Shown here in pieces: positions 3,148 to 37,138 of a stretch of 42,469 bases of DNA. A program made the position numbers and the translations under genes. Below the pieces are notes generated by a model. It saw nothing but the letters and a program-made list of their open reading frames with translations, made no database searches and was not told the origin of the DNA. Where the stretch lies: IMG/VR virus record IMGVR_UViG_2541047705_000011; one strand, given 5' to 3'. The stretch comes from a virus. Its lineage: Duplodnaviria; Heunggongvirae; Uroviricota; Caudoviricetes. Within the stretch, counting starts at the first letter, position 1, and every line of letters starts with the position of its first letter.

Positions 3148-3159
3148 AACCATATATGA
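3148..3159 (-). promoter_or_regulatory. Copy of conserved late-unit motif CATATRTGGTT, upstream of lysis operon
   Basis: Minus-strand TCATATATGGTT about 60 nt upstream of holin start; related copies at 6578-6589 and 27269-27280. Confidence 0.35.
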
Positions 3160-3368
3160 ATCATTATTGTTCCATATCATATATCTCAATAAAAGTACTA
3201 ATGATTTTACAGAACGAGCCAGCAGAGTGGGGGCAGTTGTACAGGAACCATAGACTTAATTTTGTATTTAATAATGCTATGGTGTAATAAACCTGAACAT
3301 GTATTTAAAATACGTACTGATTCATGATAGAATTCAAAGATAACTTTTCACCAACTCCGTTTTTGATA

Positions 3369-3395
3369 CCCGCAATATTTTGCGGGCTTTTTTTT
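3369..3395 (+). terminator. Hairpin plus T8, canonical only in plus orientation, at tailspike 3' end
   Basis: CCCGCAA-TATT-TTGCGGG then C and T8; the T-run overlaps the tailspike stop codon; no plus-strand CDS upstream. Confidence 0.45.
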
Positions 3396-6300
3396 AACGT
3401 TCTTCCAGAGACTGAACCCGCTCTTTTATCTTATCCATTTCTCTGCGCTGCCATGCTGCCTCGATATAGAATAAGAGATCAGGTCTGACCCCCCATCTAG
3501 ATCCTGCTGGCGTTATTTCAACGCGCTCAATGATGTCTTCCATTACCATCACTGGATTATCATCCTCATCAACAATGATGCTCCCGTCATTATCAGTCAG
3601 CGGCATTTCCCTTTGGCCAGTAATGACGTCATCATATACTGCGGGATAATCGTCATAGCAAAGAAAGGCATAGCGGCATGTTGTGCTTTCTTCTTCCATG
3701 AGTCCGTGAGAAATAAGAACATCACGAAGTTGCTGCGCGATTACACCATGATGTATCCTCGCCCCTTCTTCCCCCTTTATAGCGACAGCGTTCAGCCATT
3801 TATAAGCGATATACCTGACGTCACCCCAGGCATCCAGCAATGCTTCGTCAGGAGAGACCGGCTCTGTCTTTAATGTTCCGTCACTGGTAACCACAGGATT
3901 GGAGCCAAGATAAACTGTCGAGAACCTGTTTCCCGGACCACCAAGAGCATTTACATTATCAAGATAAGGTTTAACATCTCCGTTCTCAAAAAGATGTTCG
4001 AGTGCGTTATATACCGCGCGACGTGGAGTACTGCTTCCGGAACCATGCAACGTTATCATTGCACCATCTGCTGAAGACGTTGTTTCACCTCCGCTAACGA
4101 TTAATCTCTGAGCGGTAACATCATCAGACGGTACTTTCTTCGCAATAATGGCGTAATTACCCTCAAGTTTGACTTCCGCGCGAACTTGTCCTGATGTACC
4201 TGCATGGACAGTCAGTGACTGGACGGCAACATCATCTGTGAAATCAACGGGTACAGGAACCGTCCTCACGCCTGACGTCGACATAAAAGTAGGAAGCGTT
4301 CTGTTAGGAGTGGCTCCGTAGACAAAATCCCTTGAAACAAATTCTTCCTGTTTAATTTTCACCCTGAAACAATACAAATCAGCCGGGTGACCATCGTGAA
4401 CATAAGGATATTTTCTGTTGTTATCCCCTATGCTCCATGGGTTTAGAAAGTCTTCCCCACCGAAAATGTAGTACAGCCAGTTGTCTTTGATACAAACTGA
4501 ACCAACACCAACCGCAGAGTTAACTATTCCGCCCTGATAAATCTGATCAGTAACATTAACCCACTCTACATTATCCAGACTCCACTCATTGACGTTAACT
4601 CTGGTCATAAATGTTCTTGGATAATTTCCTGCATAACGGTTATCAGGTTCTCCTCCTTCCCACTCACCAAATGCGCGCTCACTGCCAAAAATAATCAGCT
4701 CATCGCCAACTTTGGCAAAAGGAAGGTTTGAGTGATGAACATTATTTGGGAAGCGAAGAGAATTCCATGATGTACCTAAATCAGAGCTTCTGTGCAATGA
4801 ACTACCGGGTTGAGTACTTAATGTCCCCCTGGTCGTCAGATACAGAATGCCATCATAATATTTTACACATGGCTCAGATGCATTCGCCTCATATTCTGCA
4901 GGTATGCGTCTGCGAACAAAGCTACCAGGAGAACCGAAAGCATCAGAGAAATAGAGTATCCCAAGCTCGCGTGGACCAATATCACCATTATGGTAGCCAA
5001 CAGCAAAACTGTTATCGCTAATCGTCGCAAAACTGTGAATCTCAGTAACAGGAGTGCTTCCGTCAACAAAAGAAGGAATAGTTCCAAGACTGGTTTTTCT
5101 CCATGGTGACGAGTGAAATGATGTACCAAAACTCCAGTATCTACCCTCGTTATTCTGATCCACATCCTGGGTATTTTGCGTCGTAACTGTAAAAGTATTT
5201 TTATCAATAACAGTAGTCACCGTCATATTCCCGGTAACACCTGTAACACCAGAGTTTGAGAAGTTGACAAAATCACCAGCAAATAATCCGTGATCAGTAA
5301 TGCGAATATAAGCGACTTGCTGATTTGCTGCTTTCGTTATACCACCATAAACGCGAAGGCTGCGACTCATTGGGCGATCCCACAACTCTGCAACCTGCAG
5401 TTTATTTCCGCTCACGGTCCGCGTCTCAATTACAGCAAAAAGGCGATTTCTGACAACCCCCATACTCATGCAGTGATAGTTAACTGTGGGATAGTTTTCA
5501 TGTAAATCTGTAAGCCATTCCGGCGTTGTCCAGGTCTTCCCGTCATCTCCTGAGCGAACCCATGCAACATGGAGGTTATTTACACCATGGCGGTCTCCAG
5601 CCATAAAAGGCGCATAGATGACATTGTCATATACAAACGTTTTATCCTGCGTCCAGGCGTTGTACCACGGTGTATCTGTAATTTTAAATAACTCTCCCTG
5701 GATAAAATCTTCAGAAGCATAAAAAAGAGGCTGGCCCGGTATTCTCTCAAATAAAAAACGAGCATTTTTAAATCGACTGACATCCGGAAGAGTTGATACT
5801 TTAAAAGTAAGCCCTAATCCGTCAATTTTATAACCTGGAGATGAGGCTTCAAGGCACGCGCTTATTGCAGTGGAATCGTCATTTATACCATCACCAACAG
5901 CTCCAAAATCTTTGGGGCTAATAGCATCACGCATTTTATCCTGGAACGTTCGGTACACAGCCCCAGAACCATACTGAATAAACCAACCAAAACCACCAAC
6001 AACCCCGGCGATTGCAGCATCGACATAATTACGCATTGAGCGATTATTTACAGCGTCCTGCTCAAATGATGGATCTGCAAGGTTAGAAATTTTGTTTTGC
6101 TTTGCATCGTAATATTTTGCAAGCAAAGATGGTTTCATCAATGCACGTCTGAACCACCCAAAACATTGCTGGATCAGCATCGTCAGGTAGTCAAAGGCAT
6201 CTTCATGCACTTCGGGGAAAAATTTTCCCTGATTGCGAAGGTCTGTCTCCTGCACTACATCAAGCACACGATCTATCGTAATTCGCCATCCAGTAGCAAG

Positions 6301-6513
6301 CGGAGACGGAAGAACCACAGAACCGCCACTATAAGTGCCCGCCCCAGTTACCGTATAACCGGTATCCAGAACCAATTCTGTTACGTTCCCGTTCAGGTCA
6401 GACACCTGAACAACCAGGTCTGATTTTCTGAAAATTCGAAAAGTATACGGAAACGATGTCGTAACGCCGTTACCGGTGTATTCGTTGTGGTCAACTTCGG
6501 TTGAGACCGTCAT
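3394..6513 (-). CDS. Tailspike, endosialidase-like (endo-N-acetylneuraminidase) with C-terminal intramolecular chaperone
   Basis: 1039 aa; N-terminus has T7 tail-fibre-like pattern YxGxG..F..F..LVV; two Asp-boxes SGDDGKTW and SSDLGTSW; C-terminal SDGTLK and HHGVIAQQLRDV resemble the autocleaving chaperone of endosialidases. Confidence 0.7.
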   Translation of the reverse strand: MTVSTEVDHNEYTGNGVTTSFPYTFRIFRKSDLVVQVSDLNGNVTELVLDTGYTVTGAGTYSGGSVVLPSPLATGWRITIDRVLDVVQETDLRNQGKFFPEVHEDAFDYLTMLIQQCFGWFRRALMKPSLLAKYYDAKQNKISNLADPSFEQDAVNNRSMRNYVDAAIAGVVGGFGWFIQYGSGAVYRTFQDKMRDAISPKDFGAVGDGINDDSTAISACLEASSPGYKIDGLGLTFKVSTLPDVSRFKNARFLFERIPGQPLFYASEDFIQGELFKITDTPWYNAWTQDKTFVYDNVIYAPFMAGDRHGVNNLHVAWVRSGDDGKTWTTPEWLTDLHENYPTVNYHCMSMGVVRNRLFAVIETRTVSGNKLQVAELWDRPMSRSLRVYGGITKAANQQVAYIRITDHGLFAGDFVNFSNSGVTGVTGNMTVTTVIDKNTFTVTTQNTQDVDQNNEGRYWSFGTSFHSSPWRKTSLGTIPSFVDGSTPVTEIHSFATISDNSFAVGYHNGDIGPRELGILYFSDAFGSPGSFVRRRIPAEYEANASEPCVKYYDGILYLTTRGTLSTQPGSSLHRSSDLGTSWNSLRFPNNVHHSNLPFAKVGDELIIFGSERAFGEWEGGEPDNRYAGNYPRTFMTRVNVNEWSLDNVEWVNVTDQIYQGGIVNSAVGVGSVCIKDNWLYYIFGGEDFLNPWSIGDNNRKYPYVHDGHPADLYCFRVKIKQEEFVSRDFVYGATPNRTLPTFMSTSGVRTVPVPVDFTDDVAVQSLTVHAGTSGQVRAEVKLEGNYAIIAKKVPSDDVTAQRLIVSGGETTSSADGAMITLHGSGSSTPRRAVYNALEHLFENGDVKPYLDNVNALGGPGNRFSTVYLGSNPVVTSDGTLKTEPVSPDEALLDAWGDVRYIAYKWLNAVAIKGEEGARIHHGVIAQQLRDVLISHGLMEEESTTCRYAFLCYDDYPAVYDDVITGQREMPLTDNDGSIIVDEDDNPVMVMEDIIERVEITPAGSRWGVRPDLLFYIEAAWQRREMDKIKERVQSLEER

Positions 6514-6577
6514 GTTAAATCTCCAGATAGTCGCAGCACCCGTTGCGCCGCATACCTGGTTATTCTATTACCTGGAA

Positions 6578-6589
6578 AACCACATATGG
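6578..6589 (-). promoter_or_regulatory. Copy of conserved late-unit motif CATATRTGGTT, upstream of tailspike
   Basis: Minus-strand CCATATGTGGTT then N5 and GGTAATA, 65-76 nt upstream of tailspike start. Confidence 0.35.
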
Positions 6590-6616
6590 ATAGAAAGGCT
6601 GTAAATACGAATAGAT

Positions 6617-6633
6617 ATTACCTTTCAGGTAAT
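6617..6633. promoter_or_regulatory. Operator-like palindrome ATTACC-TTTCA-GGTAAT (perfect)
   Basis: Perfect 6-bp inverted arms, 5-bp spacer; between tailspike start and the LexA-box gene. Confidence 0.6.
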
Positions 6634-6669
6634 TTGCAAAACGTGCTGGATAGCAAACAAATTATTTGA

Positions 6670-6689
6670 TACTGTATAAATATACAGTT
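6670..6689. promoter_or_regulatory. LexA box (SOS operator)
   Basis: TACTGTATAAATATACAGTT, 18/20 to consensus TACTGTATATATATACAGTA (CTGT-N8-ACAG); 20 nt upstream of the 6709 start; possible -35 TTGATA overlaps. Confidence 0.75.
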
Positions 6690-6708
6690 ATTGCATGGAG
6701 AAGATAAG

Positions 6709-6966
6709 ATGCAGCAGTATCACTATCCACTGGAAGACGGATTTACCGAAAGGATTCACACGCCGGGAGGCGTCAGGTCACTGGTGGAGGGATCGCACTT
6801 GATGAAATTACTCCGGGATCTCGATAAGGATGGATTTAATGTCGATGGCCCACTTGCCGAACTGACTGCACTGATTAACTACGTCACCAGCTCACAGATG
6901 TCTATGCAGGATCTGCAAACACATCTCGACTATTGTGCCGAACAATTACGAAAACAAACCCGGTAA
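6709..6966 (+). CDS. Small antirepressor-like protein (homologous to C-terminal domain of the BRO antirepressor at 8113-8805)
   Basis: 85 aa from ATG 6709 (track ORF starts at TTG 6691); RBS GGAGAAG; aligns with the last ~60 aa of the BRO protein. Confidence 0.6.
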   Translation: MQQYHYPLEDGFTERIHTPGGVRSLVEGSHLMKLLRDLDKDGFNVDGPLAELTALINYVTSSQMSMQDLQTHLDYCAEQLRKQTR

Positions 6967-6972
6967 ATTTAA

Positions 6973-6990
6973 AGGCCGCAAGAGCGGCCT
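6973..6990 (-). terminator. Hairpin terminator between convergent genes
   Basis: AGGCCGC-AAGA-GCGGCCT; T-rich on minus strand downstream; overlaps the 6989-7717 stop codon. Confidence 0.45.
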
Positions 6991-7717
6991 ATCGTTTCGC
7001 TTTGTGCTCGTCCCAGCACGTTTTGCACCATGCCATTAAGCCGTCCGCATTTTGATTATTAGGGTAAAAGCTGGTCCGTTTTCTGCGGACATTACAAATT
7101 GGGCACCACTTCATATGGCGTGTATTCTTTGGACCATCGAGACACCTTGCACACCACTTAGTCAATCCATCTGGATTTTTTGACGATTTCCGGAATTTGT
7201 CATATGGAAGGTTTATTCTGCATCGCAAACACTGCTTGCGGCCACTTGAAACTCTGTTAGCTGATTCTTCTTTTGGCGGCGATACAGAAGGTATTCTTGC
7301 TGGCTCTGATACTGCCTGAGGTGCTTTTTTAGATGACTGAGACGATATGTCATCACCAGGGAATCTTCCATGATATGCCGGACGCGTTGACACTCCAGGT
7401 GGAAGCTCAGCTGTAAACGGCTTTGGCTGAATCAGTTGCCTCTCTTTTGCTAACTCCTGCTGTTTATAATATGTCTGGATTACCGCACTATCATAAGCAG
7501 GAGGTACGGAAATATCAGGCGCGTTACCTCCAGTTTTTTGAAACTGAGTAGATGTGTGTTCTATCACCTGTGTACGACTAATCGTTACCTCCCCATCTTC
7601 GGTCTTTATCGTTTTGTTCTGATTAACGACCGTACGATCAGAGATCTTAGTCTTGTTCTGGTTGATAACGTAAATAATCACCGCAACCACACCAACAACT
7701 ATCCAGAAAACTTCCAT
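6989..7717 (-). CDS. Membrane-anchored protein with two C-terminal zinc-ribbon repeats, unknown function
   Basis: N-terminal TM helix, Pro/Ser-rich linker, then CLRC..x22..WCARC and CPIC..x21..WCKTC; RBS GAGGAAAAG. Confidence 0.6.
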   Translation of the reverse strand: MEVFWIVVGVVAVIIYVINQNKTKISDRTVVNQNKTIKTEDGEVTISRTQVIEHTSTQFQKTGGNAPDISVPPAYDSAVIQTYYKQQELAKERQLIQPKPFTAELPPGVSTRPAYHGRFPGDDISSQSSKKAPQAVSEPARIPSVSPPKEESANRVSSGRKQCLRCRINLPYDKFRKSSKNPDGLTKWCARCLDGPKNTRHMKWCPICNVRRKRTSFYPNNQNADGLMAWCKTCWDEHKAKR

Positions 7718-7736
7718 TGCTTTTCCTCACAATAAC

Positions 7737-7753
7737 ATTACCTTAAAGGTAAT
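7737..7753. promoter_or_regulatory. Operator-like palindrome ATTACC-TTAAA-GGTAAT (perfect)
   Basis: 20 nt upstream of the 7717 start codon; possible -35 TTGATC 17 nt from TACCTT on minus strand. Confidence 0.6.
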
Positions 7754-7785
7754 ATCTTGCTTTCAGGTGATCAAGCGTTAAACGC

Positions 7786-7807
7786 AATCAACCAAATACG
7801 GTTGATT
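7786..7807. promoter_or_regulatory. Second-type palindrome AATCAACC-N6-GGTTGATT
   Basis: Perfect 8-bp inverted repeats with 6-bp spacer, between two ATTACC/GGTAAT sites. Confidence 0.4.
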
Positions 7808-7829
7808 TTAATATTTCTTCGCGTTTATC

Positions 7830-7846
7830 ATTACCTTTGCGGTAAA
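7830..7846. promoter_or_regulatory. Operator-like palindrome ATTACC-TTTGC-GGTAAA (11/12 arms)
   Basis: Same motif family; upstream of structured leader and BRO gene. Confidence 0.5.
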
Positions 7847-7864
7847 TTTACATCGCACTCCTCT

Positions 7865-7958
7865 TGTGCCATAGTAATCGGGCACTGGCAAAATCCAGTG
7901 CCGGGATTGGTCTCCCGGATTACTACAGAGGCACATATGCCGCATAAGCGGTTTTTTT
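7865..7958 (+). other. Candidate structured RNA/leader: three-way junction fold followed by short hairpin and T7 run
   Basis: Nested complementarity TGTGCC/GGCACA, GTAATC/GATTAC, GGCACTGG/CCAGTGCC, GGGA/TCCC; then CCGC-ATAA-GCGG plus TTTTTTT; about 155 nt upstream of BRO start. Confidence 0.3.
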
Positions 7959-8112
7959 ATGTGTAAAGCGCACCTATTCTATGGTGGGCTGTGTGGGGGC
8001 ACCGAAAGGTGCGCCGGGTTCCTTTGTAGCCGGTAAGACCAACTCTGCACAGTTCACCACCATCTGATTGGTCTCAGCGGTGGTGATTAACCTAACTACA
8101 AAGGTGATCGCT

Positions 8113-8805
8113 ATGAATACCAAACCTTCCATCTTTTCCTTTGAGTCATCCTGCCAGATCCGTATGTTCATGATTGACGGAGAACCTTGGTTTGTCACCA
8201 AAGATGTGTGCAATGCTTTGAATATTGATGTTACACAAGCGAGAAAACTTGATAAAAAAGGCTGGAACAAAAAGGGGCTGTATTCAATACAGACCCCTGG
8301 TGGAATACAAGAACTATCCATCGTTTCAGAATCAGGTCTCTACATCCTTATTCTGCGTTGCAAAGAGGCAATGACTGAGGGAACGAGAGCATTCAGATTT
8401 CTTGAATGGGTTACAGGTGAGGTTCTTCCTCAGATCCGCCGCACCGGAAGTTACATTAAAAACTCGCTCCCGCAGGAAGAACGCATAAAGATGGTTGCCG
8501 ACCAGGTAGCCAACGCCACGGCGTCAGCAGTAATGCAGGCGATGAAGATAGAGAACAAAACCTACAGTGCCCCACTGAAGCCCGGCTACCGTAGCCTGAT
8601 TCATTCGCCGTCTGGTGTTCTCGGCCTGACGGAGAACTCACTGCTGATGAATCTGCTGAACCAGTTACAGGACGACGGGCACGACGTATCGGGCGCGGCG
8701 GCGGAGCTGACCACCATGTTCTGCTACATCGTCGGTGTGAGCAAATGCCTGCGTGATATCCAGACCCACGCGGAGTACATCAACGACAAGGCAGGGTTCT
8801 TCTGA
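8113..8805 (+). CDS. BRO-N domain antirepressor
   Basis: BRO-N motif FSFESSCQIRMFMIDGEPWFVTKDVCNAL; RBS AAGGTGA; start trimmed to ATG 8113; C-terminal domain homologous to the 6709-6966 protein. Confidence 0.75.
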   Translation: MNTKPSIFSFESSCQIRMFMIDGEPWFVTKDVCNALNIDVTQARKLDKKGWNKKGLYSIQTPGGIQELSIVSESGLYILILRCKEAMTEGTRAFRFLEWVTGEVLPQIRRTGSYIKNSLPQEERIKMVADQVANATASAVMQAMKIENKTYSAPLKPGYRSLIHSPSGVLGLTENSLLMNLLNQLQDDGHDVSGAAAELTTMFCYIVGVSKCLRDIQTHAEYINDKAGFF

Positions 8806-8875: not shown

Positions 8876-8892
8876 ATTACCTCAAGGGTAAG
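8876..8892. promoter_or_regulatory. Operator-like palindrome ATTACC-TCAAG-GGTAAG
   Basis: 11/12 arm match; 59 nt upstream of the 8951 start. Confidence 0.5.
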
Positions 8893-8950
8893 AAAGCATT
8901 TTTAATCTTCCCTTCAAAACGCGTCCTGTAGCCAAACATGGGAGGACGAA

Positions 8951-9583
8951 ATGAGAACAAATACAACAAGAAAAGCGATGCCATACATTATCCCAGAAGC
9001 AGATTTCGATAGAAAACTGAACATGTCTGAGAAGAACACTAGTCACACCGAAAGCTACTTAGCGAAAGGTGTGGTTGATTTCGTTCTTCCGGGATTCACA
9101 ACACCTTATGGTTATCGCCTTGTAAAATCTTGTAATGGCGATCATTACAGAATGATTACTACCAGCGATACTCCAGAAACGGTGTATGCGGTTAAGTTAA
9201 TCTTTCGGGAAGATATCGTCGAAGCCAAAAGAACATGTACGCAGATCATGGTATGGCGTACGCCTAATGTTATTCATGACCGTGCTGTTCATGGTTTGCC
9301 TCAGATTTTTTTTCAGTTCTTCCTAGAGCAATATGCGATCGTTGTATCTGATGAGCAACAAACAATCGATGGGAGAAGATTCTGGGAAAGAATGATTTCT
9401 TGGGCTATAAACACCCCGGGATATAATGTATACGTTTCAGATGGCTCTGAAGAAGATAGACCTCTTAGCTTCATGACATCATGGGATGATTTCTATAGCC
9501 AGTGGGCTGATTTCTGTTGGGGCAGTGATAAAGATGTGCATACCCACAGACTACTGGTTATAAGCAAAGATAAACTGCATTAA
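8951..9583 (+). CDS. Hypothetical protein (210 aa), accessory/moron gene, no recognisable family
   Basis: ORF track; RBS GGGAGG; AT-rich; flanked by operator-like site upstream and terminator downstream. Confidence 0.6.
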   Translation: MRTNTTRKAMPYIIPEADFDRKLNMSEKNTSHTESYLAKGVVDFVLPGFTTPYGYRLVKSCNGDHYRMITTSDTPETVYAVKLIFREDIVEAKRTCTQIMVWRTPNVIHDRAVHGLPQIFFQFFLEQYAIVVSDEQQTIDGRRFWERMISWAINTPGYNVYVSDGSEEDRPLSFMTSWDDFYSQWADFCWGSDKDVHTHRLLVISKDKLH

Positions 9584-9866: not shown

Positions 9867-9878
9867 GTGACATGTCAC
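9867..9878. repeat. Perfect 12-bp palindrome GTGACATGTCAC (copy 1 of 3)
   Basis: Overlaps lipoprotein stop codon; identical copies at 28357-28368 and 30808-30819. Confidence 0.8.
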
Positions 9879-10255
9879 GCAACGCAATTATTACCGCGCC
9901 ATGTAACATTTTTAATAATCTTATCAGCACCAAACTCAACGTAAACAGAGCAACTGAAATGGAGTGTATAACCGCCATCAGTTGTTGCGTATGTGTTTGA
10001 ATATATAGTATTACCAATTAGATTAGACGTAGTATTATACGTTGTGGTTTGTGGTACGTTATAACTACCAGAGCTTGAGTAAACATACACTCTGTTTCCA
10101 TCTGGAGATGTAAGCTCTCCCTGAGGATACCCCCACTGCTGAACCATTGCGTCTATACTCTGCCCGCGCCACGTAAGCATATTTCTTTCAAACTGTGCAA
10201 CTGACTGGCATCCAACGAGAAGCATAAATCCAAAAATCAAAAATACTTTTCTCAT
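9875..10255 (-). CDS. Lipoprotein (126 aa), candidate superinfection-exclusion/moron protein
   Basis: Start MRKVFLIFGFMLLVGC (lipobox); RBS AGGGG; Thr/Ser/Tyr/Asn-rich mature part; IS1 lies 66 bp upstream of its start. Confidence 0.6.
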   Translation of the reverse strand: MRKVFLIFGFMLLVGCQSVAQFERNMLTWRGQSIDAMVQQWGYPQGELTSPDGNRVYVYSSSGSYNVPQTTTYNTTSNLIGNTIYSNTYATTDGGYTLHFSCSVYVEFGADKIIKNVTWRGNNCVA

Positions 10256-10375
10256 AATTACCCCTATCATGGAAAAACAGCACCAATCCACAAATTAACT
10301 AGTTATTTTATTATTCTTCCGGTGATGCTGCCAACTTACTGATTTAGTGTATGATGGTGTTTTTGAGGTGCTCCA

Positions 10376-10651
10376 GTGGCTTCTGTTTCTATCAGCTGTC
10401 CCTCCTGTTCAGCTACTGACGGGGTGGTGCGTAACGGCAAAAGCACCGCCGGACATCAGCGCTATCTCTGCTCTCACTGCCGTAAAACATGGCAACTGCA
10501 GTTCACTTACACCGCTTCTCAACCCGGTACGCACCAGAAAATCATTGATATGGCCATGAATGGCGTTGGATGCCGGGCAACCGCCCGCATTATGGGCGTT
10601 GGCCTCAACACGATTTTACGTCACTTAAAAAACTCAGGCCGCAGTCGGTAA
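10376..10651 (+). CDS. insA: IS1 InsA
   Basis: Sequence recognised as IS1 InsA ([32 protein letters not shown]...). Confidence 0.95.
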
Positions 10652-11073
10652 CCTCGCGCATACAGCCGGGCAGTGACGTCATCGTCTGCGCGGAAATGGA
10701 CGAACAGTGGGGCTATGTCGGGGCTAAATCGCGCCAGCGCTGGCTGTTTTACGCGTATGACAGTCTCCGGAAGACGGTTGTTGCGCACGTATTCGGTGAA
10801 CGCACTATGGCGACGCTGGGGCGTCTTATGAGCCTGCTGTCACCCTTTGACGTGGTGATATGGATGACGGATGGCTGGCCGCTGTATGAATCCCGCCTGA
10901 AGGGAAAGCTGCACGTAATCAGCAAGCGATATACGCAGCGAATTGAGCGGCATAACCTGAATCTGAGGCAGCACCTGGCACGGCTGGGACGGAAGTCGCT
11001 GTCGTTCTCAAAATCGGTGGAGCTGCATGACAAAGTCATCGGGCATTATCTGAACATAAAACACTATCAATAA
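10570..11073 (+). CDS. insB: IS1 InsB reading frame (expressed as InsAB' fusion by -1 frameshift)
   Basis: Sequence recognised as IS1 InsB; slippery TTAAAAAACTC upstream in the InsA frame. Confidence 0.9.
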
Positions 11074-27268: not shown

Positions 27269-27280
27269 AACCACATATGA
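27269..27280 (-). promoter_or_regulatory. Copy of conserved late-unit motif CATATRTGGTT, upstream of portal unit
   Basis: Minus-strand TCATATGTGGTT then N5 and GGTAATA, 39-50 nt upstream of the 27230 start. Confidence 0.35.
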
Positions 27281-27298
27281 TTTATTTATCGTAGATAG

Positions 27299-27327
27299 TT
27301 GACATTTAACGCACAAATTATTACCTT
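27299..27327 (+). promoter_or_regulatory. Sigma70-like promoter directed toward tRNA-Arg
   Basis: -35 TTGACA, 17-bp spacer, -10 TACCTT, overlapped by an operator-like palindrome. Confidence 0.5.
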
Positions 27328-27336
27328 TCAGGTAAG
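27320..27336. promoter_or_regulatory. Operator-like palindrome ATTACC-TTTCA-GGTAAG
   Basis: 11/12 arm match; overlaps the -10 of the promoter above. Confidence 0.55.
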
Positions 27337-27657
27337 CAAAGGGTTCATTCCGGTTATTAACCTGACTGGCTTGTCGTTAAATTGAACAGGTGGAGTGAGC
27401 TTTTATTTTGAGCAGTACGGCGTATGGCACATGCGCCGATAGCGGTCTGGATACGTTTAAGGGGCACCCTCCCTTGCTCGGGCAAACGAACCAGGTAGCC
27501 GGAATGTGCAAGTCGAGCGGTTTTATTCCGCGCACGGGGATTCACCATCCCGGCGATTCGGTGTGACGCCTCGGAAGAGACGAGGGTACAACGATGAGAG
27601 CATTTATGGAGCCGCGACAAAGTGTGGCGCCTTAACAGGCTAAGTGCTCTCAGCGTT

Positions 27658-27734
27658 GTGGCATTAGCTCAGTCGGACAGAGCAACCGCCTTCTAAGCGG
27701 TTGGTCGCAGGTTCGAATCCTGCATGCCACGCCA
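27658..27734 (+). tRNA. Phage-encoded tRNA-Arg (anticodon UCU)
   Basis: 77-nt cloverleaf: acceptor GTGGCAT/ATGCCAC, D-stem GCTC/GAGC, anticodon stem ACCGC/GCGGT with loop CTTCTAA, T-arm GCAGG-TTCGAAT-CCTGC, discriminator G, encoded CCA. Confidence 0.9.
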
Positions 27735-27932: not shown

Positions 27933-28352
27933 ATGAAAACAATTGATATGTTGGCTAAGTATCTAAATGAATGGCCATTAAAATATTCTCGTATCGTTCA
28001 GGCTGAAGACTGCGTTTTTTATGGCGTTTTTGCTGGTAATGAAATGCATTACGAAGTAATTCAGAGTGAGGGACTGGCCGGGTTAACTCTTAGCGAAGAC
28101 CATGGTACTAGCGTTACGTTCCATGACTGGATAACAGCACAACGTTCTGAAATGGAAAAAGGCGATGTGTTTGATATTTCTCGCGCTGTTTACGCTAAAG
28201 CAAAAAGTGATAATGATTACATGAGCGAACACTTATACAACATGAAGTTACAATGCCTGCATGCGGCGCTTATTCAGAATGGGTACTTCGATAAAACAAG
28301 TGCCATCAATATTGCGGAAGCCATCAACACTGGATTTAATGCCATTAAGTAA
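27933..28352 (+). CDS. Hypothetical moron protein (139 aa), no recognisable family
   Basis: ORF track; only plus-strand gene inside the minus-strand late region; RBS AAGGTGAG; terminator downstream. Confidence 0.6.
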   Translation: MKTIDMLAKYLNEWPLKYSRIVQAEDCVFYGVFAGNEMHYEVIQSEGLAGLTLSEDHGTSVTFHDWITAQRSEMEKGDVFDISRAVYAKAKSDNDYMSEHLYNMKLQCLHAALIQNGYFDKTSAINIAEAINTGFNAIK

Positions 28353-36018: not shown

Positions 36019-36097
36019 GGTAAGCCCTGTTATTAGTATTGGGATTACGGTCATTTTGTGCTGACACAAAAAAAAGATCAACCAGATTTGGTTTTTT

Positions 36098-36553: not shown

Positions 36554-37138
36554 ATGAAAAGTATCCAGGACGTCCGCAGGCAAAATCTCAACGACTTGAT
36601 CGACCGTGAATTCAATGGTGTTCAGACGCGGATGGCAGAAAAACTTGGAACTCAGGCAAATCTGGTAAACCGCTGGGCTCTTGGCAAGAAGGTTATCGGC
36701 GACCAGGTTGCGCGAAAAATTGAAGCTGCCGCCAATAAACCCCGTAACTGGCTTGATATCGATCGCTCGCTTTCTCAGGAAGGTTTTCAGCCTGTCGGCC
36801 CAAGCGACATTGGTCAGCTGGCGGCTCACAACCTGGAACGCTGGATGAGCGAAAGCCGCGACCTTTCAACACAGGGAAAACTTCACCGCGCATCCGGCGT
36901 CGCCCAGGTGACAATCAGCCGCCTGTTAAACAATGAGGTCAGCGTTTCCATTTCCACCCTGGAGAATGTTGCATCCGCATTCGGGCGTCACGGATATGAA
37001 CTACTGATTCACCCGCACGACCCTGCGACTATCAACTATGACCGCTCGCGCTACGCATTGTTACCCGAAACCGAGAAAGCAAAGATCGAAAGTTACATTG
37101 AATTTGTCATCAACCAGAACGAAAAAAACAAACAATAA
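36554..37138 (+). CDS. CI-like repressor with two HTH domains and no recognisable S24 peptidase domain
   Basis: 194 aa; HTH segments TRMAEKLGTQANLVNRW and LHRASGVAQVTISRLLN; no Ser-Lys autocleavage module seen; weak SD. Confidence 0.65.
   Translation: MKSIQDVRRQNLNDLIDREFNGVQTRMAEKLGTQANLVNRWALGKKVIGDQVARKIEAAANKPRNWLDIDRSLSQEGFQPVGPSDIGQLAAHNLERWMSESRDLSTQGKLHRASGVAQVTISRLLNNEVSVSISTLENVASAFGRHGYELLIHPHDPATINYDRSRYALLPETEKAKIESYIEFVINQNEKNKQ

Follow-up and report, generated by a model that had tools for sequence, protein, structure and literature searches.

A membrane-anchored double zinc-finger protein from an optional, predicted repressor-controlled cassette in an epsilon15/phiV10-like prophage of Escherichia coli

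Introduction

What can a temperate phage do with a membrane protein that carries two zinc fingers, and at which stage of its life is such a protein made? The question is raised by one gene in a 42,469-nucleotide stretch of viral DNA (IMG/VR record IMGVR_UViG_2541047705_000011, Caudoviricetes), which is called the window below. By its sequence the source region is an epsilon15/phiV10-like (Uetakevirus-type) Escherichia coli prophage. The gene and its immediate signals are as follows.

6989..7717, minus strand: coding sequence (CDS) of the membrane-anchored double zinc-finger protein, stop codon included; ATG start, 242 aa
7725..7728, minus strand: Shine-Dalgarno GAGG, read from the sequence, 7 nt 5' of the ATG
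6973..6990, minus strand: G+C-rich hairpin terminator directly past the stop codon, common to this gene and the convergent Tum-like gene

An initial annotation of this DNA proposed the gene as a candidate for superinfection exclusion or abortive infection. By analogy with known systems, our best reading is that of a membrane-tethered nucleic-acid binder which would act in exclusion or abortive infection and which is encoded by a repressor-controlled optional cassette. We hold it tentatively, at somewhat less than an even chance.

The gene is intact and conserved

The DNA at window 6500-8100 is matched over its full length by phage TL-2011b (94.6%), while in phiV10, vB_EcoP_ZX5, phiv142-3 and others only the two flanks match. 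The maps of TL-2011b, phiV10 and epsilon15 are alike, leading from ejection and virion proteins through an accessory and antirepressor region and a small gp19-like gene to the tail fibre. In the TL-2011b record (NC_019445.1 34153-35241; L001 4489-5577) the locus carries a misc_feature, 'similar to hypothetical protein', that also covers the promoter and the C4 region. The 242-codon frame is unbroken there despite the missing CDS annotation, and the record under-annotates the gene.

That record, with a misc_feature in place of a CDS, is the one observation that would suit a spurious or decaying open reading frame (ORF). The intact TL-2011b frame speaks against it. Among E. coli alleles the ratio of nonsynonymous to synonymous change (dN/dS) is 0.2-0.4 for the whole gene and about 0.05-0.15 for the zinc-finger domain, values which come from small counts and with that limit place the gene under purifying selection. 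Furthermore, all eight cysteines are invariant down to 21% identity across Gammaproteobacteria, the AlphaFold2 (AF2) confidence is high for the transmembrane (TM) helix and the fingers, and PGAP predicts the protein in E. coli genomes. A spurious ORF is already ruled out by this conservation, and we give that explanation practically no weight.

A single membrane helix, a long tether and two Cys4 fingers

The protein is divided into five parts, listed here with the evidence for each.

7658..7714, minus strand: N-terminal TM helix, residues 2-20 (AF2 per-residue confidence, pLDDT, of about 90; hydropathy; family conservation)
7565..7636, minus strand: juxtamembrane beta-hairpin, residues 28-51, with the motif TIKTEDGEV (AF2 strands 28-38 and 41-51)
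7244..7540, minus strand: Pro/Ser/Ala-rich disordered tether, residues 60-158 (composition, low pLDDT)
7118..7243, minus strand: zinc finger 1, residues 159-200, with C163, C166, C189 and C192 and the pattern F...DG...WC (alignments, pLDDT >90)
6992..7117, minus strand: zinc finger 2, residues 201-242, with C205, C208, C231 and C234, and a basic C-terminal helix (alignments, model)

The only strongly hydrophobic 19-mer of the protein is at its N-terminus (mean Kyte-Doolittle 2.3). It is preceded by Met-Glu only and followed by Lys22, Lys24 and Arg28. Because these basic residues stand right after the helix, the positive-inside rule would put the fingers in the cytoplasm. The topology would then be N-out/C-in, with the fingers on the cytoplasmic side, where reducing conditions allow Cys4 sites to bind zinc. 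A single-pass inner-membrane protein with its bulk in the cytoplasm is strongly supported. In the beta-hairpin, Thr38 and Gly41 are conserved across the family alignments. The tether contains 14 Pro, 13 Ser and 10 Ala in 99 residues with pLDDT of about 45-60; its length varies between homologues and it is not alignable.

Each finger repeat has two CxxC motifs (163-166 and 189-192; 205-208 and 231-234), and the distance from the first CxxC to the Trp before the second is exactly 21 residues in both. The C-terminal finger domain has a net charge of +15. Modelled alone it reaches a mean pLDDT of 88, and in the full-length model its pLDDT is above 90. In an alignment of 41 family sequences one Trp is as invariant as the eight cysteines and the other nearly so; further invariant or near-invariant positions are occupied by Met, Gly, Lys, Phe, Asp, Arg and Leu. 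The initial annotation had read from the sequence a single N-terminal TM helix, a Pro/Ser-rich linker and two CxxC...WCxxC repeats. All three are found, and AF2 predicts the TM helix and a confidently folded finger domain.

The protein belongs to a known family and its fingers resemble nuclease-accessory fingers

No family had been recognised for this protein in the initial annotation, and here the picture changes. The protein matches PHROG 6762 from end to end (E 1.4e-148, residues 1-242 on positions 1-242 of the 242-position profile), so that the family is already known, with its function annotated as unknown; the fingers also have kin, being Stc1-like and of the type that accompanies HNH nucleases. 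The remote homology search thus yields both a family and a finger type. The whole architecture is common to 32 homologues in Enterobacterales. A profile search of 1.84 billion cluster representatives gave 145 matches at E<=1e-10, dozens of them full length and many via the zinc fingers only; in all, the profile has roughly 1,600 hits. A scan of genome contigs gave only 15 loci. Pfam, NCBIfam and PADLOC contain no family that matches the whole protein.

Residues 161-193 match the Pfam family Stc1 (PF12898) with 21.5 bits (E 3.5e-4), below its gathering cut-off of 24.8 bits. The finger is therefore Stc1-like by sequence, and the protein is not a curated Stc1 member. Multi-finger relatives found by the family profile do pass the cut-off (60.9 bits for P0066, for example). 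Proteins with 3-10 fingers of this kind are detected by the profile as well, and some are fused to SF1/SF2 helicases or HEAT repeats. Among PHROG families, those for endonuclease VII, HNH endonuclease, Lar-like proteins and primase are matched in their finger segments; finger 2 matches the 'Lar-like restriction alleviation protein' at E 2.5e-8. A structure search of BFVD with the model of the C-terminal domain finds 40 viral proteins at E<=0.001, and many of these are named HNH endonuclease, EndoVII, 'Zn-finger protein' or 'Stc1 domain'. The zinc site of the C-terminal domain resembles those of PacI and Hpy99I, a similarity that does not extend beyond the zinc-site module. A profile search of PDB sequences gives weak matches only, to XPA and PacI (E 0.23), and a Foldseek search of PDB with the full-length model, which is mostly tether, gives nothing at E<=0.001.

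These matches raise the possibility that the protein is itself a nuclease. We rejected this, since no catalytic residues are conserved and no nuclease domain is present: a search against Pfam HNH and Endonuclease_7 gives no match at E<=1, and the 41-sequence alignment contains no conserved His, Asn or Glu, where the HNH or beta-beta-alpha-Me motif has a catalytic His and a metal-binding Asn/His. It is strongly supported that the fingers are of the accessory type which precedes HNH, EndoVII and GIY-YIG endonucleases, with the nuclease domain absent. Compared with the HNH, EndoVII and GIY-YIG homing endonucleases, PacI, Hpy99I and Stc1, the fingers are similar, but here they are fused to a membrane anchor. 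The finger module is probably a non-catalytic binding domain, and because of its charge of +15 nucleic acid is its most likely ligand.

The gene is part of an optional cassette

In the alignment with phiV10, about 830 bp are missing from that phage (roughly 6968-7822), which comprise the terminator, the ORF, the Shine-Dalgarno sequence, the operator and the promoter. Both flanks are clean in phiV10 and include the operator of the C4 promoter. The cassette is also absent from epsilon15, ZX5 and phiv142-3, and phiV10, ZX5 and phiv142-3 have a repressor 100% identical to that of the window. Among 5426 complete E. coli genomes, the repressor is found in 537 and the ORF (>=80% coverage) in 129, about 2.4%. 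Strain MS20653 and APEC O2:K1 strains are among those that carry the prophage. The gene is thus an optional, self-contained moron cassette with its own promoter, operator, CDS and terminator. Since phages with the identical repressor lack it, the immunity switch works without the cassette. This weighs against an integral regulatory role, and on this ground we rejected the gene as a built-in component of the switch.

The optional nature of the cassette also bears on a self-serving early function. The protein could anchor or protect the genome of its own phage at the membrane, or counteract restriction or nucleases close to where the DNA enters. The membrane-anchored DNA-binding early protein p16.7 of phi29, which serves its own phage's replication and is a conserved core gene, would be the model for the former. 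Both proteins combine an N-terminal TM helix with a C-terminal nucleic-acid-binding domain (predicted in our case) and would be early gene products. The early repressor-controlled expression predicted below, the basic cytoplasmic fingers on a long tether and the Lar-like match of finger 2 are all in line with such a role. However, that match covers the generic zinc-finger motif only, and p16.7 has another DNA-binding fold. The cassette, moreover, is dispensable and patchy among near-identical phages, and the family is present in unrelated virion types and in a Buttiauxella prophage remnant. Co-transcription with cI in lambdoid relatives would be unexpected for an entry or replication factor. 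We find this explanation quite improbable.

A main-repressor operator overlaps the predicted promoter

The control elements of the cassette, and the gene for the factor that is predicted to act on them, are given below.

7737..7753, no strand: perfect 17-bp operator ATTACC-N5-GGTAAT, ATTACCTTAAAGGTAAT, ending 19 nt from the ATG
7746..7751, minus strand: predicted -10 element TACCTT, inside the left half of the operator, from the conserved layout
7769..7774, minus strand: predicted -35 element TTGATC, with a 17-nt spacer to the -10 and 15 nt upstream of the operator
36554..37138, plus strand: prophage repressor gene, the predicted trans-acting factor (phrog_8 transcriptional regulator)
7786..7807, no strand: palindrome AATCAACC-N6-GGTTGATT in the interval that separates the divergent promoters, with a 2-mismatch copy of AACCAYATRTGGTT as its core

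A perfect ATTACC/GGTAAT site near the start codon had been pointed out in the initial annotation as operator-like, and it is indeed there (ATTACCTTAAAGGTAAT). Its identity can now be proposed from the sequence. The epsilon15 record (NC_004775.2) contains seven 16-17-bp sites annotated 'protein_bind: repressor; lysogeny', all of the form (A)TTACC-N5-GGTAAT. In the window, ATTACC-N5-GGTAAT with <=2 mismatches occurs 14 times against 1.17 expected, a number reached by none of 100 shuffles. Because the half-sites are identical to those annotated in epsilon15 and the window is so enriched in them, the site is identified as an operator of the epsilon15-family main repressor, that is, a predicted binding site. 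A literature text search for the operator consensus gave no match. The epsilon15 operator has reportedly been defined genetically; the identification given here rests instead on the record annotation and the statistics.

Other copies of the operator are located beside the repressor gene (36483, 37195 and 37257) and before accessory units (6617, 7830, 8876 and 27320). This is like the epsilon15 regulon, in which identical half-sites are scattered genome-wide at early, late and accessory promoters, and the scatter also resembles the many C1-controlled operators of P1. The likeness to epsilon15 has its limits: the window repressor is only 42% identical to that of epsilon15, and 7737-7753 is a predicted site. 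Overexpression of the ZX5 repressor blocked lytic growth (PMC9782041). Two further sites, 30510 and 30528, form a tandem pair 18 bp apart in or next to the start of the small-terminase gene. Pairs exactly 62 bp apart are seen in the early region (34090/34152 and 37195/37257), a spacing identical to that in epsilon15.

The operator at 7737-7753 is perfectly conserved in all E. coli copies of the gene. The arrangement of a -35 element, 15 nt and the operator is kept upstream of homologues (TTGACC in loci L065-L070, TTGATC in L071, TTGAAC in L081), where the proteins are 59-64% identical and the intergenic DNA is otherwise unalignable; the window site at 27320 has the identical layout (TTGACA-N15-operator). 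We infer from this that the operator covers the -10/+1 region of a weak sigma-70 promoter. With only 19 nt between operator and ATG there is no room for a promoter downstream of it. A repressor bound over -10/+1 should therefore occlude RNA polymerase. As the operator overlaps the promoter and the layout is conserved, the prediction is that a stable lysogen keeps the gene off and that infection or induction turns it on. In a Providencia homologue the equivalent position is taken by another perfect palindrome, ATTAACC-N5-GGTTAAT, which could mean that the control site tracks the specificity of the resident repressor. Within the 12 kb examined, that palindrome has only one further copy, with 1 mismatch.

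A second kind of element is found upstream. The motif AACCAYATRTGGTT is present five times in the window against 0.55 expected (3148-3161, 6578-6591, 27269-27282, 7790-7803 and 36080-36093). The copies at 3148-3161, 6578-6591 and 27269-27282 stand as 'motif-N7-TAATAx' directly before the operons for lysis, tailspike and gp3/portal, and phiV10 and epsilon15 have this element ahead of their lysis genes too. The motif may be a late-promoter or activator site. In loci L064-L070 (Citrobacter/Enterobacter/Salmonella-type contigs) a perfect palindrome, TGTGACATGTCACA, is conserved about 65-80 nt upstream of the homologue's ATG and immediately upstream of its -35 element, at a position equivalent to that of the palindrome at 7786-7807. 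It may be the site of a second regulator.

Relatives are found in two settings

In podovirus-type relatives (Providencia, Serratia, Yersinia YeP5, Citrobacter/Enterobacter-type contigs and Acinetobacter), the gene lies at the end of the ejection-protein operon. Its neighbours are Tum-like, Arc, Rha or toxin-antitoxin genes and small lipoprotein genes, a typical accessory-gene region. The homologue follows Arc in L092 and Rha in L089 and L091, and one homologue is contained in the small Buttiauxella remnant.

The lambdoid-type relatives (27-40% identity) are arranged in another way. In six lineages (L010/L167, L093, L164, L096, L100 and L173/174) the homologue is 15-54 nt downstream of a gene for an HTH+S24 CI repressor, on the same strand, and a divergent cro-like gene is on the far side. 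The six are Aeromonas phiARM81mr, two Acinetobacter lineages, Marinobacterium, Neptunomonas and the L173/174 group. In L095 and L099 (Oceanobacter and Pseudoalteromonas) the homologue abuts cI convergently. With gaps as short as 15-18 nt, the co-directional cI-linked relatives are probably co-transcribed with cI and hence expressed in the lysogen. The slot adjacent to cI is occupied by exclusion genes in lambda (rexAB), 933W (stk) and BTP1 (bstA), and it is the position of rexAB and other exclusion genes that are expressed in the lysogen. The distant family members share that slot, but no homology is found, and the window gene is in an antirepressor region with a repressor operator, not beside the repressor gene.

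This setting leads to classical superinfection exclusion, in which a protein made constitutively in the lysogen blocks DNA entry at the inner membrane in the manner of SieA, Imm or gp15. The membrane anchor, the optional cassette and the probable lysogen expression of the co-directional lambdoid homologues would all fit. In P22, sieA occupies the slot between the ejection-protein genes and the immI/tailspike region; our gene is likewise between the ejection-protein operon and the tailspike/immI region, and so are its homologues in Providencia, Serratia and Yersinia phages. P22 SieA, T4 Imm and HK97 gp15 are, like our protein, small phage inner-membrane proteins, yet there is no homology to any Sie family in PHROG or PADLOC. 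They have no cytoplasmic zinc-finger domain, while the functional domain here is cytoplasmic and has the features of a nucleic-acid binder rather than those of a channel blocker. Moreover, SieA is made in the lysogen, whereas our gene is predicted to be repressed there, with a perfect main-repressor operator on -10/+1 and no alternative promoter that fits into the 19 nt to the ATG. Classical exclusion expressed in the lysogen is unlikely for the source phage.

The cassette stands in the middle of an antirepressor region

The genes on both sides of the cassette are as follows.

6709..6966, plus strand: convergent Tum-like small antirepressor gene, epsilon15 gp19 homologue, ATG start
6672-6690, on the side of this plus-strand gene: near-consensus LexA box TACTGTATAAATATACAGT, across the promoter of 6709..6966
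7830..8805, plus strand: divergent unit with operator 7830-7846, c4-a1b1/isrK 7869-7958, C4 antisense RNA 7977-8064 and Bro-N antirepressor 8068..8805

The product of 6709..6966 corresponds to the C-terminal part of antirepressors (phrog_450 and phrog_1760). This homology and the LexA box at its promoter make it a Tum-like, SOS-triggered antirepressor, in agreement with the convergent LexA-controlled antirepressor gene described in the initial annotation. In the divergent unit, Rfam scores 74.7 bits for a1b1/isrK and 78.6 bits for the C4 antisense RNA. By sequence, the arrangement of C4, isrK and Bro-N Ant is a complete P1/P7-type immI module. The operator at 7830-7846 overlaps the promoter of this unit (TTGATT-18-TATCAT, 7802-7831). 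The 6709-6966 protein is homologous to the Bro-N Ant (8068-8805) over the C-terminal third of the latter, as both match phrog_450 and phrog_15539. The phage would thus have two antirepressor modules with a common presumed repressor-binding domain and different triggers, SOS in one case and C4 RNA in the other. With the Tum-like gene on one side and the immI-type module on the other, our gene is placed in the middle of the antirepressor region.

Such a position would be natural for a modulator of the lysis-lysogeny decision, a tethered factor which sequesters or stabilises the repressor, Tum/Ant or a host factor (FtsH, RecA) and thereby sharpens induction or establishment. Switch genes are consistently adjacent (the two antirepressor units here; cI, Arc or Rha elsewhere), the gene is in the repressor regulon, and in the founding example, Stc1 of Schizosaccharomyces pombe, the finger is a protein-interaction module. 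On the other hand, phages that lack the gene but share the c4/Ant module and a 100% identical repressor are functional (ZX5, PMC9782041). The family also occurs together with unrelated repressors (epsilon15-type HTH, S24-type CI, Arc), which makes one specific partner unlikely. We consider a modulator as doubtful as classical exclusion.

A possible function in exclusion or abortive infection

The closest parallels for our preferred reading, a tethered nucleic-acid binder acting in exclusion or abortive infection, are lactococcal AbiP of the AbiC/P group and staphylococcal PdpSau. In AbiP, a single TM helix and a non-specific nucleic-acid-binding domain are both required for abortive infection, and a phage protein triggers it (PMC13064643). 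In the prophage protein PdpSau, a membrane helix is combined with a cytoplasmic C-terminus of positive charge (PMC10127798). The likeness consists in a single gene, an N-terminal anchor (residues 2-20 in our protein) and a basic cytoplasmic domain. The differences are also clear. There is no sequence similarity (no match in PADLOC), and our protein has tandem Cys4 fingers where theirs are OB-fold-like. It has in addition a long disordered tether, a conserved beta-hairpin and predicted repressor control. Nucleic-acid binding by our protein is suggested by the +15 charge and the finger type only.

A possible course of events has four steps. In the lysogen, the repressor on 7737-7753 would probably silence the gene. 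Following from this, the gene would be switched on when a naive cell is infected or when the Tum-like protein or the C4-RNA-gated Ant inactivates the repressor. The protein would then insert with its C-terminus in the cytoplasm, as expected from the predicted structure and topology, with two basic fingers on a tether of roughly 100 residues. Finally, the fingers might bind DNA, RNA or nucleoprotein near the membrane and hinder competing phages, a step that we put forward with clearly less confidence than the first. The targets would be superinfecting phages or co-induced prophages. The lambdoid relatives in their rexAB-like slot would do an equal job in the lysogen.

Several points weigh against the preferred reading. 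The PADLOC defence-system models give no match to the protein, and the only 'Sie-like' PHROG match (phrog_8545, E 0.068) covers the TM helix alone. The consensus promoter scanner calls no promoter for the gene, and its -10 TACCTT agrees with the consensus at only 3/6 positions. Stc1-type fingers can mediate protein-protein instead of nucleic-acid contacts. A repressor-silenced gene would be atypical for prophage defence, which is normally active in the lysogen. In addition, the timing would be opposite under the epsilon15-type wiring, where the gene is off in the lysogen, and under the lambdoid wiring, where it goes with cI; either each lineage has its own timing or both states need the function.

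Thus the initial proposal of superinfection exclusion or abortive infection is kept in part. It gains from the optional cassette in the immI region, the homologues which abut cI and the AbiP/PdpSau-like layout; its classical form, with expression in the lysogen, does not agree with an operator over -10/+1. A bolder version, which we think rather unlikely, is that the family represents an unrecognised single-gene weapon of immunity regions used by phage against phage. The fingers would be a tethered sensor or clamp deployed during waking or establishment, a kind of 'lytic-phase exclusion', and the lambdoid phages would express the same module with cI; our low confidence applies to both parts jointly.

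Other features of the window

At 27296-27734 (plus strand), a consensus promoter TTGACA-N15-operator, with its operator at 27320-27336, reads against the late operon. It is followed by a G+C-rich leader of about 300 nt, a tRNA-Arg(UCU) at 27658-27734 and then a 139-aa ORF at 27933..28352. The phage tRNA-Arg appears from this arrangement to be under direct repressor control.

The tailspike (3394-6513, minus strand) has an epsilon15-type N-terminus and a complete K1 endosialidase, with End_N_terminal, a beta-propeller (E 1e-233), the tail-spike domain and an S74 chaperone. Given this K1 endosialidase, E. coli with a K1 capsule should be the target of the prophage, in agreement with the matches to APEC O1/O2:K1 genomes.

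Two ORFs of 91 aa and 167 aa at ~10347-11073 (plus strand) look by eye like IS1 InsA and InsB, and this suggests an IS1 insertion in the prophage. They separate the accessory region from the end of the virion-protein operon. At 8876-9583 (plus strand) is a 210-aa accessory protein (phrog_1349) with a 1-mismatch operator 58 nt upstream, and at 9875-10291 (minus strand) a 138-aa lipoprotein-like protein (phrog_3716), relatives of which adjoin homologues of the zinc-finger gene elsewhere (L071 and L009, for example).

Implications

If the function were not confirmed, the protein would be one more conserved hypothetical prophage protein. The map of 14 operator sites in a phiV10-like prophage is useful in itself, as it covers the promoters of the Tum-like gene, C4/Ant, tRNA-Arg and the accessory genes. 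If the proposed reading is true, the cassette would show clearly an accessory gene that the prophage repressor controls directly, with a bearing on competition during simultaneous induction. The gene would then be a compact single-gene module for defence or exclusion, new in its sensing domain, from a family that is widespread in the prophages of Gammaproteobacteria.

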